Sequence record: NC_018846.1
Origin: Escherichia phage P13374
Direction: 5' to 3' (one strand)
Length of the DNA stretch: 60,894 bases
Of the stretch, positions 27,001-33,000 are shown piece after piece (within the stretch, counting starts at the first letter, position 1; the number at the start of each line of letters is the position of its first letter). The position numbers are program-made.

Positions 27001-30000
27001 GGCGGCAGGGCAGAAGTGGTCAGCGATGCGGAGGGAACCGGAGGTAAGGCAGTGAAGCTGACCAAGGAAGCCGGTAAAAGCAGCTGGGTGCTGGAGTACG
27101 CCGCGGGCAACGGTGCGGCTCTGTTACAGAAAGGGGGGCAGATTCGCTGCCGCTTTAAGGTTTCGGGAGCGCTGGCTGCGAACCAGTATGTTATGGCGTT
27201 TTACTGGCCGGTATCTTCACTGCCACAGGGCGTTGCCCTGACCGGAGACGGGGGGAATAACCTGCTGGCAGCGTTCTACATCCAGACAGATGCAAAAGAC
27301 CTGAATGTGATGTACCACAATGCGAAAGTAGCGACAAACAACCTGAAACTGGGAACCTTTGGCGCATTTGATAACGAATGGCATATGCTGGCTTTCCGCT
27401 TTGCCGGGAATAACAGCCTTCAGGTGACGCCGGTTATTGATGGTCAGGATGGCACACCGTTCACGCTGACGCAGTCACCGGTCAGTGCATTTGCGGCGGA
27501 TAAACTGCATGTGACAGACATTACCAGGAATGCGACTTACCCGGTGCTGATTGACAGCATTGCGGTGGAAGTGAACAACGCGGATGCCGCGGCATGATAA
27601 AAAAAGCCGCCAGTTGCCTGAGACCTCTGGCGGTGTGAGATTCATGGAGAATCAAGGAAAGATACTACCACTTTCGTCATCGGCATTTTTAAATGAAAAC
27701 TGTTTACTTAGTCAACCATAACGGTAAGAAATTATGACATTTCTGAACCAGTTAATGCTGTACTTCTGTACGGTGGTCTGTGTGCTGTATCTCCTTTCGG
27801 GTGGGTACAGGGCCATGCGTGACTTCTGGCGCAGACAGATTGACAAAAGGGCCGCTGAGAAAATCAGCGCCAGTCAGTCAGCCGGAAGCAAACCCGAAGA
27901 GCCGCTCATTTAGCGGCAACTTTCTTAATCACATCTTTCGACGAGAAAATCCCATGTCAGAAATTACATCCCTGGTCACTGCTGAAGCAGTGAAGGAAGT
28001 CCTGCGCTCTGAAGAAGTCCGGAGCGCACTGAAACAGAAACTTCGCCATAACCTGGAAGCGCGTCTTGATGCAGAAGTGGATGCCATTCTGGATGAACTG
28101 CTGGGCGCACCGGCAGCTCCGGAGCCGGAAGGCATCGCGGGTGAGGGGAGTGCTTCAGATAGCGGTGACCCCACACCGGACAGCGACATGATGATGTAAG
28201 CATGCGTCAGGGACCATCGGTGTGTGCCGGTGGTCTTTTTTATTGTTGTGAGCTTCCGGATTGCGGGAGGCGGGGTATGAACCAGATGGAAAAAATCACA
28301 ACAGGTGTGTCATACACCACGTCAGCGGTGGGAACGGGCTACTGGTTCCTGCAGTTGCTGGACAGGGTTTCCCCGTCTCAGTGGGCGGCAATAGGCGTGC
28401 TGGGGAGTCTGCTGTTTGGTCTGCTGACGTACCTGACGAACCTGTATTTCAAAATCAGAGAGGACAGGCGTAAGGCGGCACGGGGAGAGTAAGCTGATGA
28501 GCAGGAAACTCCGCTATGGTTTATCGGCTGCCGTTCTGGCGCTGATTGCCGCAGGTGCTTCTGCGCCTGAAATCCTCGACCAGTTTCTGGATGAAAAGGA
28601 AGGCAACCACACCACGGCATACCGTGATGGTGTGGGTATCTGGACCATCTGCCGTGGTGCCACCCAGGTGGATGGTAAGCTTGTCGTCCCCGGCATGAAG
28701 TTGTCGAAGGAAAAATGCGACCAGGTTAACGCCATTGAACGTGATAAGGCGCTGGCATGGGTGGCGAAAAACATCAGAGTGCCACTGACCGAACCTCAGA
28801 AAGCGGGGATCGCGTCATTCTGTCCTTACAACATTGGCCCCGGTAAGTGTTTCCCGTCGACGTTTTATAAACGAATTAATGCAGGCGATCGCAGGGGAGC
28901 GTGTGAAGCGATTCGCTGGTGGATTAAGGACGGTGGCAGAGACTGCCGTATCCGCTCAAATAATTGCTACGGTCAGGTATCCCGTCGCGACCAGGAGAGT
29001 GCGCTGGCATGCTGGGGTATCGACAGGTAGCAGAATATTTTGCTGAAAAATGACGTTTGCTCACGCGGACGGATAACACGAAATCCTGCGAACTGGCAAA
29101 ATGCAAGTGAATAAAGTCAGGAAGATTGTTTCACGCTGAGGCACCGTAATGGTGTCTTTGTCATTTCTGCGCTTCGCACAAGCGTAAATAAACCAAAGAA
29201 CCTTTCAGGATGAGCCCTGGTGGATAACCGGCAGTGGTCTGGTTAACCCTCTTTGGGCTGGTTATTCCTGTGCGCAGGGTTCATCACTAAAAGGAAATAA
29301 CCGATGAATATGATGACCGTGCCGTTTCACGGCGATTCTCTTTATGTGGTTAACCATAACGGTGAGCCATACGTTCCCATGAAACCTGTCGTTGCGGGGA
29401 TGGGGCTGGCCTGGCAATCACAGTTGGCTAAGTTAAGACAGCGTTTTGCGTCAACTATAACGGAAATCGTTATGGTTGCTGAGGATGGGAAACGACGCAA
29501 TATGGTGTCCCTGCCACTTCGAAAACTTGCAGGCTGGTTACAAACCATCAATCCCAACAAAGTAAAACCCGAAATCCGCGACAAGGTAATCCAGTATCAG
29601 GAAGAGTGCGACGATGTTCTCTATGAATACTGGACGAAGGGGGGTGTCGTTAATCCCCGTCGAATGAGTGTGATGGAAGAACTCAATCAGGCCTGCGCTG
29701 ACATGAAACGGGATAAAAACATTGCCAGTGTGTTTGCTACCGGGCTGAATGAGTGGAAACAGGTTAAAGCCGCGCATGTATCAAAAATCCGCACATTGAT
29801 AAACGAAGCGAATCTGCTGATTGATTTTGTCCTGGCTGATACAGGCAAAGGGAAAATAACAAAGGCGGATTGATGGAGTGGTGGCTAATGATATCGGATA
29901 AACTCATAACGCTGGCGAAGGGCCTTTGTGTAATCGTCGGTATTTCATTTTCACTAATGCTGGTTGTTCTTTTTCTTTCCATAAACTGGATGGCGTTGAC

Positions 30001-33000
30001 TTCGGCAGGGCTGGTGGGGTGAGCATAAACCGAATGCTTTCCGCGTTTACCGTTATTCTGCTGGTGGTCTGTGGTGCGCTTAGTCTGGGGCTGAATCATT
30101 ACCGTGATAACGCCATCGCTTACAAAGAGCAGCGCGATAAAGCCACATCCATCATCGCAGATATGCAGAAGCGGCAACGTGATGTAGCAGAACTTGACGC
30201 CAGATACACAAAGGAGCTTGCTGATGCTAATGCGACTATCGAAAGTCTCCGTGCTGATGTTTCTGCTGGGCGTAAGCGCCTGCAAGTCGCCGCCACCTGT
30301 GCAAAGTCAACGACCGGAGCCAGCAGCATGGGCGATGGAGAAAGTCCAGGACTTACAGCAGATGCTGAACTCAATTATTACCGTCTCAGAAGTGGAATCG
30401 ACAAGATAACTGCGCAGGTTAACTACCTGCAGGAATACATCAGGACGCAATGCCTGAAATAATTTTTTTGCAAATCACAAAGTCAATTTAATGAGCCTCG
30501 CGATACGGGGCTTTTTTATGTCCGCAGTAAACGCGCTTCACACGCGCGACTTATGAACACAGAACCTTTCAGGATGACCCTTGAGGATGCCGGTTTGGTG
30601 ATCGGTGCCTTTCTGTGGGCCGGAATCCTGTGTGACAAGGTTCATCACTAAAAGGTGTGCACTGATGAATTATCCAACTATCGTTAACGGCATCGATTTT
30701 CGAGATCTTGTTTTTGTGACAGGCAACGAGCCGGTGACGGATACCCGAAAGGTTGCCGTAGCATTTGGCAAAGAACACAAAGATGTATTGCGGAAAACAA
30801 GAGCCGTTGTTCAACAATGCTCAAAAGAATTTGCAGAGCGCAATTTTGCGCTTTGCTATGAAAACAATGAGTTACAGAACGGTAAACCCCAGCCCATATA
30901 TCGAATGACAAAAGACGGTTGGACGATGTTGGTATTTGGTTTTACGGGGAAGGCTGCTATGACCTTTAAGGAAGCGTACATTCAGGCTTTCAACTGGATG
31001 GCTGAGCTTATTCAGCAAGGTCTGGCGAATCTGGAGGCGGAGCGCAACGCTGTAATGCTGGAGTACATGAAAGAGAAAGATGTCGCCAGTATGTCAGGTC
31101 GTTTGCTCAATCGCTGGGGCAGGGTGAAGAAGCCTCAGTTGCTGGCAAGGCTGGACAGGCTGGAGCAGCAGGGGCAGATTGCGTTACCCGGATTTGATAA
31201 AGGCATTTCAGCCTGACATAGCCATGCGCCGTATCGTCGCCGTATTCCCGCATTAACAGAGACTGCAGCCACCTTATCTGCGTGAGTGTGCGGGGATAAT
31301 CAAAAACGATGCACACCGGGTTTTCTCATTTTTCACGAGATGGGAGCGATTTCCCGCGAAGCCGCCTGTCCGGTGCGGTGGTGGAAGAAACCGGATAAAA
31401 CAACCGCATTGTGCAAATATCGATCAAATATGGTGCTGCTGTGTGAAATCTGAAAAATCACAGCGGTCATTATGCATCAGTTTTTAACACAGGACGTCAG
31501 AAAGTGACATGGCAAAGCTGGACTGGAAAAAGCTGGAGCAGGCATTCCGACGCGAACATGCCGAAACGGGAATAACATTACTGGACTGGTGCCGGAAGAA
31601 AAAGATTAATTACAACACCGCCAGAACCCGTATAAAAATGGGCAAAATCGATCATGAAATTGATCATAAAACCGATCATGAAATCGATCATGACATCTCA
31701 GATGAAGAACCCTGCAATGACGCGGGTTCCGGCGATGAAAAATGCGCAAAAAACTCTGAAAAAAACTGCGCAAATTCGGCAGAAACGAAACGGATTCGTG
31801 GTTCCCGACTTTTACCACCTTCAAACGCTTTTTCTCAGCGAAACACCCACGCCGTAAGACACCGTGGATATGCGAAGTATCTTGAGGCAGATAACCTCAT
31901 GGATGATGCGTCCGACATGGTGCTGTTCGATGAACTGGTGTTCACCCGGGCCCGCGCACTTTCAGTAACTAAGGCACTTAAAGGGATGTTCGCCGACCTG
32001 GAAGAGGCAACTGACGTGGAAACCCGCGTTGCTCTTTACGACAAAATACTCAAAGCTGAACAGGCCCTTGACCGGAATATTGCCCGTATCGAGTCAATTG
32101 AACGCTCATTGCTGACGCTGGACGTCCTGGCTGAGACAGCACCAAAACTTCGTGCTGACCGGGAAAGAATCAACGCCGCCAGAGATAAACTCAGAGCGGA
32201 AACCGATATTCTGACCAGCCAGCGTCGGGGCGTTGTTACGCCTGTCAGTGACATCGTGTCATCGCTGCATGAAATGAGTAATTCGGGGAGACTGGATGAC
32301 ATTCCGGAAGAATGAACCGCGATGTGATGAGCCGTCAGAAATGACCGAGGCTGAACAACGTCTGTTCATCATGACTAAACTGAGCAATCCCTGGTGGCGG
32401 CTCAATCATCTCTACAAAATACAGAACGAAAAAGGTGAACTGGTCACCTTCAGAATGCGACCGGCGCAGCGCCAGTTGTTCCGGAGCATGCACAATAAAA
32501 ATATTATCCTGAAAGCGCGCCAGCTGGGATTTTCCACAGCCATTGATATTTATCTTCTCGACCAGGCATTATTCATTCCGCATCTCAAATGCGGGATCGT
32601 CGCTCAGGATAAACAGGCTGCCAGTGAAATTTTCCGCACAAAAATTGCTGTACCGTTTGATCATCTCCCTGACTGGCTGAGAGCCTCATTCACCATCGTT
32701 GAACGTCGTAGCGGTGCCAGCGGTGGCTATATCCTGTTTGGTCACGGCTCGAGTATCCAGGTGGCAACCTCATTCCGTTCAGGTACGGTGCAGCGCCTGC
32801 ATATCTCAGAGCACGGCAAAATTTGCGCGAAATATCCGGCTAAGGCGAAAGAACTGCGAACCGGTACGCTTAATGCCGTCTCTGATGAATGCATTATTTT
32901 TGATGAGTCCACTGCTGAAGGCGTGGGTGGTGATTTTTACGAGATGAGTAACCGAGCACAGGAGATCACTGCATCAGGCTTATTGCTGACGGCACAGGAT

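Follow-up and report, generated by a model that had tools for sequence, protein, structure and literature searches.

The T4 RI antiholin, P1 LydB and mycobacteriophage Ms6 gp5 are small membrane proteins that serve as accessory regulators of lysis, and small single-pass membrane morons of other lambdoid phages, HK97 gp15 among them, block the entry of superinfecting DNA. For the Shiga toxin (Stx) phages, a survey describes a conserved cassette of pinholin and signal-anchor-release (SAR) endolysin that adjoins stx (PMC8136144), and open reading frames (ORFs) of the DUF826 and DUF1378 families have been mentioned between nanS-p and the holin gene S with no function assigned (PMC10462455). Here we describe the lysis region of Escherichia phage P13374 (NC_018846.1), analyzed as one stretch of 60,894 nucleotides that we call the window, with emphasis on the 59-aa DUF1378 membrane-protein gene upstream of S. 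What is new is that DUF1378 is found within lysis cassettes at two different positions, beside unrelated holins and unrelated spanins, and we weigh whether the protein may modulate lysis.

The stretch considered here belongs to a known Stx2a-converting lambdoid phage, of which it forms the late (pR'/Q-dependent) region. The 2.9-kb lysis region is 100% identical in Escherichia phages P13803, P13363, phiON-2011 and P8983, all of them O104:H4-type Stx2a phages (genus Oslovirus), and matches 507 phage records, 221 of which cover at least 80% of its length. The order annotated in relatives is stx2AB, nanS-p, ORF44 (the 59-aa ORF), a PF05696 protein, holin, lysozyme, ant, ORF49, Rz, Rha and terS; phiON-2011, phi191 and 933W are annotated in the same gene order as the window, and the 1999 record of 933W (AF125520) already placed ant between R and Rz with the remark 'possible regulation of host cell lysis'. 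Since the order was thus annotated in 1999, in phi191 and in phiON-2011 and appears in published surveys, the gene arrangement is not new, and DUF1378 and DUF826 are pre-existing Pfam families. The cassette itself is of the usual Stx-phage type, with a P21-family pinholin, an R21-type SAR endolysin and embedded Rz/Rz1, and the accessory genes occupy its known variable junctions.

Annotation of the 59-aa ORF is uneven. A first-pass annotation of this DNA had called it absent from the ORF track, which holds for RefSeq phi191 (NC_028660) and the 1999 933W record, neither of which has a coding sequence (CDS) for it, but not for phiON-2011, where it is ORF44, nor for the listed RefSeq E. coli genomes, where it is a 'DUF1378 family protein'. 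Across the DUF826 region 933W instead carries L0106 (148 aa), which appears to be the counterpart of a 139-aa ORF of the window (27780-28199) that overlaps the 59-aa ORF and is the DUF826 frame extended upstream.

The first-pass annotation had further described the 59-aa ORF as encoding a single transmembrane (TM) segment and had suggested that it could be a lysis-timing factor. The ORF is present and aligns with PF07125 from end to end (134 bits against a gathering score of 25 bits, residues 1-59 on profile positions 1-59), which makes it a member of DUF1378. One hydrophobic segment is found at residues 3-21 (Kyte-Doolittle 19-residue mean of 1.98), with two uncharged residues on its N-terminal side and a charge of +3 on its C-terminal side, and by the positive-inside rule these flank charges place the C-terminus in the cytoplasm. 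The protein is predicted to be one TM helix oriented N-out/C-in with a basic cytoplasmic helix following it, and its AlphaFold2 (AF2) model consists of one continuous helix at residues 2-50 and a disordered tail. Conservation had been chosen beforehand as the test of the ORF, with its absence to count against the proposal; because the ORF is conserved under purifying selection, that objection falls away. Averaged across 57 distinct homologous DNA sequences, the ratio of nonsynonymous to synonymous substitution rates (dN/dS) is 0.23 in frame, as opposed to 1.28 and 1.57 in the other two frames, with mean values of 0.17 for the pinholin and 0.31 for DUF826 as neighbor controls. The motif LYF..V..LYL.(S/A)GGY(K/R) and the basic stretch are retained down to 36% identity. 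Being short, preceded by a weak Shine-Dalgarno sequence in the window (GGTAAG) and missing from some annotations, the ORF might be taken for a chance ORF or a remnant kept only by conservation of the DNA. This explanation is effectively refuted by a dN/dS that is low in this frame alone, by protein identities of 36-45% in other genera where dS is near saturation, and by the strong Shine-Dalgarno sequence (GGGAGG) or translational coupling of diverged copies, and we consider it extremely improbable. On these comparisons the 59-aa ORF is a genuine gene under purifying selection. It is found in 1004 of 5426 complete E. coli genomes (~18%), with a median of two copies, and is named by the Prokaryotic Genome Annotation Pipeline (PGAP). 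The family is small all the same: a profile search of 1.84 billion representative proteins returned 41 DUF1378 clusters at 50% identity, and a word-based search 123 clusters, among which all that carry an organism name come from E. coli, Escherichia sp. or Shigella.

To place the gene in its genomic settings we drew on 160 loci of viral contigs, on two loci of species-representative genomes and on several phage records, sorting the neighboring genes with probes made from the window proteins. The viral-contig scan was rerun with divergent seeds, the initial seeds having given near-identical loci only, and the scan of species-representative genomes with the DUF1378 profile used strict peptide patterns and yielded its two loci. 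Three arrangements emerged. In the first (~130 E. coli-type loci), the order is nanS-p, DUF1378, DUF826, pinholin, SAR endolysin and Rz/Rz1, with optional DUF1327 between pinholin and endolysin, optional ant and orf49 ahead of Rz, and optional rha at the end. In the second (31 loci), holin, endolysin and a spanin pair come before DUF1378, whose start lies 4 nt inside the spanin stop (ATGA), and DUF826 is lacking. This Rz-coupled arrangement comprises two lineages. One, represented by 'Stenotrophomonas' phage BUCT709 and relatives, has a P21-type pinholin, a SAR endolysin and a non-lambda putative spanin pair; the other, represented by a Lonsdalea britannica prophage and relatives, has a lambda-S-type holin (PF05106), a soluble lysozyme and lambda-type Rz/Rz1, its Rz being 42% identical to that of the window. 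The i-spanins of the two lineages have no detectable mutual similarity (E = 16). In BUCT709 (OM816835, vB_SmeS_BUCT709) the cassette at 3721-5153 is of enterobacterial style: its pinholin (3721-3936) is unannotated, its SAR endolysin is very like that of the window, and DUF1378 is coupled to the non-lambda spanin pair, which has an embedded lipoprotein ORF.

That DUF1378 recurs in lysis cassettes, occupying two positions and accompanying unrelated holins and spanins, lends support to the lysis-timing idea, and DUF1378 is the only uncharacterized gene of this region that follows lysis cassettes across such unrelated partners. Our preferred reading, to which we assign a probability of roughly 0.4, is that DUF1378 is expressed alongside the lysis proteins and influences the membrane step of lysis, with the triggering time of the holin as the most likely target and spanin function as a less likely one. 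Its synthesis would be late, from the antiterminated late transcript in the window and through coupled translation with the i-spanin gene in other phages. Once inserted in the inner membrane, it would adjust this step through helix-helix contacts of the conserved LYF..V..LYL.SGGY TM segment. Its topology and basic tail resemble the second transmembrane domain (TMD2) of the pinholin with its +4 tail. DUF1378 would on this reading be an optional, portable, moron-like accessory rather than a core lysis gene. Lysis timing sets the burst size of Stx phages and the moment at which Shiga toxin is released, so that an additional timing factor in the cassette would, if true, be medically relevant.

Several observations weigh against a role in lysis. 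The third arrangement, found in P2-like prophages, lies outside any lysis cassette: tail-fiber and tail-fiber-assembly genes are followed by DUF826 and DUF1378, in reversed order, and then by an acetyltransferase and a Dam methylase, and in Cedecea neteri DUF1378 stands alone in the tail-fiber slot. Phage records with the pinholin family number 425, as against 307 with DUF1378; at least ~118 pinholin records thus have no DUF1378 match, and DUF1378 is clearly dispensable for pinholin lysis. The Rz-coupled arrangement comes from two phage lineages only, and the three sites (between Q and S, after Rz, and after the tail fibers) are all classical moron slots, which means that synteny may reflect tolerance of insertion rather than function. 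In Pfam and PHROGs, DUF1378 matched only PF07125, phrog_494 and, weakly, phrog_8301, all of unknown function, and no 'lysis' PHROG; no homology to any characterized holin, antiholin or spanin family was found; and the literature that mentions DUF1378 or DUF826 assigns neither a function.

A different explanation sees DUF1378, alone or with DUF826, as a moron that has nothing to do with lysis. It would encode a small inner-membrane protein and shield the lysogen or infected cell, for instance through superinfection exclusion by blocked DNA entry. Occupation of the three moron slots, including the one after the tail-fiber-assembly gene beside other cargo, fits this explanation, as do the patchy presence of DUF1378 among phages with the same pinholin, the median of two copies per DUF1378-carrying genome and the terminator-like hairpins on both sides of the DUF1378-DUF826 pair (27600-27640 and 28209-28248). 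The pair is therefore terminator-flanked and variably present, as a moron is expected to be. The right-hand hairpin has a 13-bp stem and then TTTTATTGTTG; the left-hand one reads as a strong terminator on the minus strand, where a terminator-type stem and U-run lie within weak, sub-threshold Rfam alignments. A promoter of its own, active in the lysogen, is the other mark of a moron; a scan limited to the sigma-70 consensus found no sigma-70-like promoter on the plus strand at 27500-31600, and no conserved -35/-10 elements are present in the alignment upstream of DUF1378, so that expression of DUF1378 in the lysogen is not supported. The PADLOC search for defense systems gave no match for DUF1378 (nor for DUF826, ant, orf49 or rha), and the ATGA overlap with the spanin stop in 31 loci ties DUF1378 expression to the late lysis genes. 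We judge a lysis-unrelated moron to be the main competing explanation, somewhat less likely than our preferred reading.

The neighbor of DUF1378 in E. coli-type loci suggests yet another possibility. DUF826 was correctly described in the first-pass annotation as an acidic 81-aa ORF (27954-28199): it has 18 acidic and 7 basic residues, and alignment and the AF2 model indicate a pair of conserved helices and, after them, a disordered tail that is acidic, Pro-rich and variable. DUF1378 and DUF826 could form a two-protein module in which the basic helix of the membrane anchor binds the acidic partner, with a late role at the inner membrane that is neither holin timing nor exclusion, for example in helping toxin or virions to leave the cell, or as a toxic peptide paired with its neutralizer. 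DUF1378 and DUF826 lie next to each other in ~130 lambdoid loci, an adjacency that is also seen, with the order reversed, in P2-like prophages; the +3 juxtamembrane segment is complementary in charge to the 18 acidic residues; and DUF1378/DUF826 fusion ORFs exist in databases (P0129, P0220). DUF826 is missing, however, from all Rz-coupled loci and from the Cedecea locus, so that DUF1378 can work alone, and we regard a module of this kind as improbable.

All features of the first-pass description are present at the positions given there, and within the lysis cassette proper its reading of the anatomy stands. The holin belongs to the pinholin family (Phage_holin_2_1, 112.5 bits), and its N-terminus, MNQMEK, contains Met1 and Met4, both conserved in homologs, with the Shine-Dalgarno sequence GGAGG 6 nt before ATG1 and so spaced for Met1. 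The claim of a dual-start pinholin is borne out as far as the two Met codons of a P21-type holin are concerned; the antiholin role of the longer product is not established, because the extension (MNQ here, MYQ in most Stx phages) has no Lys or Arg. Homologs mostly lack a basic residue at positions 2-3, and three others of the set start with MKSM. In phage 21, the basic residue in the extension of S21-71 is what makes that product an antiholin. In phiON-2011 the holin is annotated from an ATG at 28202 (96 aa), an extension that crosses the terminator-like hairpin (28209-28238), and the Pfam match begins at residue 5 of the 71-aa form. The GGAGG 6 nt upstream favors 28277 as the more likely start, rather than 28202.

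The endolysin is of the SAR (R21) type, as had been claimed. It matches PF00959, its residues 12-174 align to the phage 21 structure 3HDE and to RrrD (4ZPU), with 3HDF matched as well, and it has the Gly/Ala-rich hydrophobic N-terminal segment YGLSAAVLALIAAGASAP (SAR segment LSAAVLALIAAGASAP) and, as read from the sequence, the triad spacing E35-D44-T50. Rz has its TM domain at residues 7-25 and, together with Rz1, forms a two-component embedded spanin.

In the window, 988 nt separate the stop of R from the start of Rz, compared with -4 or -10 nt in loci free of inserts (30 loci), which agrees with the ~1 kb displacement of Rz/Rz1 noted at first pass. Across loci this spacing falls into classes, the others being ~290, ~480 (orf49 only), ~990 (ant and orf49) and ~1190 nt, which identifies the R/Rz junction as a hot spot for cargo and ant as one of several alternative inserts. 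Other small ORFs take the place of ant between R and Rz in related prophages, and a DUF1327 gene lies between pinholin and endolysin in PhiR12_5 (5806-6315) and in ~40 E. coli-type loci. Taken together, the DUF1327 insertions and the alternative R/Rz ORFs indicate that every junction of the cassette tolerates cargo.

The gene in this gap had been called an antirepressor gene, ant. Its P22_AR_N domain upholds that assignment in part, but a domain search found no P22_AR_C, the C-terminal domain that completes P22 Ant; in its place is an ORF11CD3 C-terminal domain, which is shared with the neighboring downstream Rha-type gene. In phi24B, an Ant that resembles the C-terminus of P22 Ant has been studied, and its deletion lowered pR' activity (PMC3064807). 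We considered whether it is the ant of the window; given that resemblance, it probably is not, and phi24B Ant is probably one of the early-region genes. Downstream of ant, orf49 is a second uncharacterized small membrane ORF of the lysis region. It overlaps both neighbors, the ant stop at its start (TGATG) and the GTG start of Rz at its stop (GTGA), it always abuts Rz whether ant is present or not, and it occurs in 270 phage records at 67-100% amino acid identity with moderate constraint (dN/dS 0.50 versus 0.82 and 1.26 in the other frames). We infer that the genes at the R/Rz and Rz/terS junctions, ant, orf49 and rha, were inserted there as independent cargo. Coordinates of these features are collected in Table 1.

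Table 1. Positions of genes and RNA elements in the lysis region of the window, with the evidence or context for each.
Feature	Position	Strand	Evidence or context
DUF1378 gene, 59 aa	27734..27913	+	PF07125 2e-39; phrog_494; dN/dS; AF2; hydropathy and flank charges
DUF826 gene, 81 aa	27954..28199	+	PF05696 3e-40; dN/dS 0.31
P21-type class II holin (pinholin family), 71 aa	28277..28492	+	PF04971 9e-33
SAR-type endolysin (R21/RrrD family)	28497..29030	+	PF00959; 3HDE and 4ZPU matches
ant-like gene, 189 aa	29304..29873	+	P22_AR_N (6e-46) and ORF11CD3 C-terminal domain
orf49, 49-aa hydrophobic ORF	29873..30022	+	phrog_4906 4e-32
Rz i-spanin	30019 (GTG) or 30034 (ATG)..30462	+	PF03245 3e-35
Rz1 o-spanin lipoprotein, +1 frame of Rz	30224..30409	+	PF06085 1e-19; lipobox LLGVSAC
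Rha-type regulator gene, 183 aa	30665..31216	+	Phage_pRha and ORF11CD3; between lysis cassette and terS
Hairpin after nanS-p, GCCGCCAG...CTGGCGG	27600..27640	.	A-run on one side; left bracket of DUF1378-DUF826
Intrinsic-terminator-like hairpin and T-run, DUF826/S gap	28209..28248	+	Terminator scan; right bracket of DUF1378-DUF826
Terminator-like hairpin (29138-29158) with T-rich tail, then GCGC palindrome (29168-29185)	29138..29185	+	5' of ant leader
ant leader, ~94-nt hairpin	29201..29294	+	Minimum free energy -43.1 kcal/mol, z = -3.8; covariance model 89 bits
Intrinsic terminator (30493-30523) after Rz, then GCGC palindrome (30532-30548)	30493..30548	+	5' of rha leader
Second leader copy, 91 nt, before Rha-type gene	30565..30655	+	Covariance model 128.7 bits

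The leader that had been ascribed to ant is real, and its hairpin (29201-29294) recurs before the Rha-type gene (30565-30655). Both copies are long hairpins with the invariant ends CCTTTCAGGATGA ... TTCATCACTAAAAGG and differing centers, and in every copy, including diverged ones, CCUUU of the leader pairs with the Shine-Dalgarno sequence AAAGG of the next gene. A search for the exact ends found the leader in at least 120 viral contigs (39 distinct variants), where it precedes P22_AR_N ant, Rha, KilA-N-like, Bro-like and HNH-like genes. A covariance model built from these variants recovered diverged copies before other Rha genes, one Lonsdalea KilAC antirepressor and a TerB-family gene. Outside the window, copies of the leader lie for example at L007:6442-6559, L141:6833-6949 and L189:3298-3409. 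The 17-bp basal helix is 99% paired among 55 distinct sequences, and changes on both sides occur in 10 of its 17 pairs, as opposed to at most 5 in slid controls and 4.4 ± 1.5 in shuffles, figures that come from an alignment fitted to the model and from only four or five diverged classes. The G·U pairs favor the sense strand. Upstream, the combination of terminator, GCGC-N7-9-GCGC palindrome and large hairpin is kept in nearly all of 99 upstream variants, diverged ones included, and the sigma-70 consensus scan found no promoter before the leaders. The leader occurs in 159 phage records from E. coli, Salmonella, Klebsiella and Shigella, and among the 30 matches listed none carries an RNA or regulatory annotation; searched as text, its sequence was not found in the literature. 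Rfam gave no match at the leaders within 27550-31550, either at the gathering threshold or at E up to 5, including the C4, IsrK and sRNA-Xcc1 models, all of which do match elsewhere in the window.

We propose that the leader acts in cis as a translational block, in which the hairpin would occlude the ribosome-binding site of ant or rha and keep translation low until it is opened, and that the cargo genes behind it would be transcribed only by terminator-resistant late transcription. Candidates for opening the hairpin fared poorly. For the phage's own IsrK and C4, duplex energies with the leader are no better than those of dinucleotide shuffles (z >= -0.3), and for sRNA-Xcc1 and the ant leader there was a single marginal value (5 of 200 shuffles). 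The duplex output as a whole looked unreliable too, and the idea was dropped as unsupported. A leader-peptide ORF was also considered, the ant copy encoding only MSPGG* and the rha copy a 32-aa ORF; because the frame is not conserved between the two, this reading was rejected. A conserved leader before antirepressor-like genes offers a handle on how such potentially dangerous regulators stay silent in a late operon. The most far-reaching form of our proposal would make DUF1378 a portable single-helix lysis regulator, acting whatever the holin type or on i-spanins, and the leader an undescribed riboregulator family of enterobacterial temperate phages; we advance this combination with reserve and consider it somewhat doubtful.

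Structured RNA lies upstream of all four ant-like genes examined in the window. The other two are on the minus strand of the early region (12271-14090), a Phage_pRha-type gene (13201-13848) and an ORF6N-type gene (12271-12945) that share a C-terminal segment. By Rfam, IsrK (14015-14090) and C4 (13903-13990) precede the former and sRNA-Xcc1 (12984-13067) the latter, and a second copy of sRNA-Xcc1 is located at 4689-4778.

Further features were noted near stx. By Rfam, STnc100 (25249-25454, plus strand) and the anti-sRNA AsxR (25456-25508, minus strand) lie just 3' of stx2B, and three tRNA genes (window 23592-23840) lie upstream of stx; all of these are known Stx2-phage features. In the window (25660-27597) and in phiON-2011, nanS-p is a single intact 645-aa ORF with DUF1737, SASA and DUF6645 domains. 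RefSeq phi191 has two CDS in its place (1564-3499; a SASA esterase and a 'hypothetical protein'), a split that is due either to a frameshift or stop in phi191 or to a sequencing difference.

Set against known systems, the window is closest to the Stx phages 933W (AF125520), VT2-Sakai, phi24B, P13803 and phiON-2011, which together with P13374 are identical or near-identical in sequence and gene order, including ant between R and Rz, and the sole difference lies in which small ORFs are annotated. The phage 21 cassette likewise has a holin of the same Pfam family with Met1 and Met4, an R21-homologous endolysin including the SAR region, and embedded spanins, but its holin extension is MKS rather than MNQ, and the window has extra genes upstream of S (DUF1378 and DUF826) and between R and Rz (ant and orf49). 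The late-region leader finds its nearest parallels in P1/P7 C4 RNA-ant, Gifsy-1 IsrK-anrP and P22 sar-ant, where a structured RNA likewise lies directly upstream of an antirepressor-like gene and controls access to the ribosome-binding site. The late-region leader differs from them in that it matches no Rfam family, has no significant complementarity to the phage's own IsrK or C4, and makes its pairing with the Shine-Dalgarno sequence in cis, not by way of a separate antisense RNA. DUF1378 itself, for which no sequence similarity to T4 RI, P1 LydB or Ms6 gp5 was detected, resembles these regulators in being a small membrane-associated protein encoded in or beside a lysis cassette and dispensable for lysis itself.

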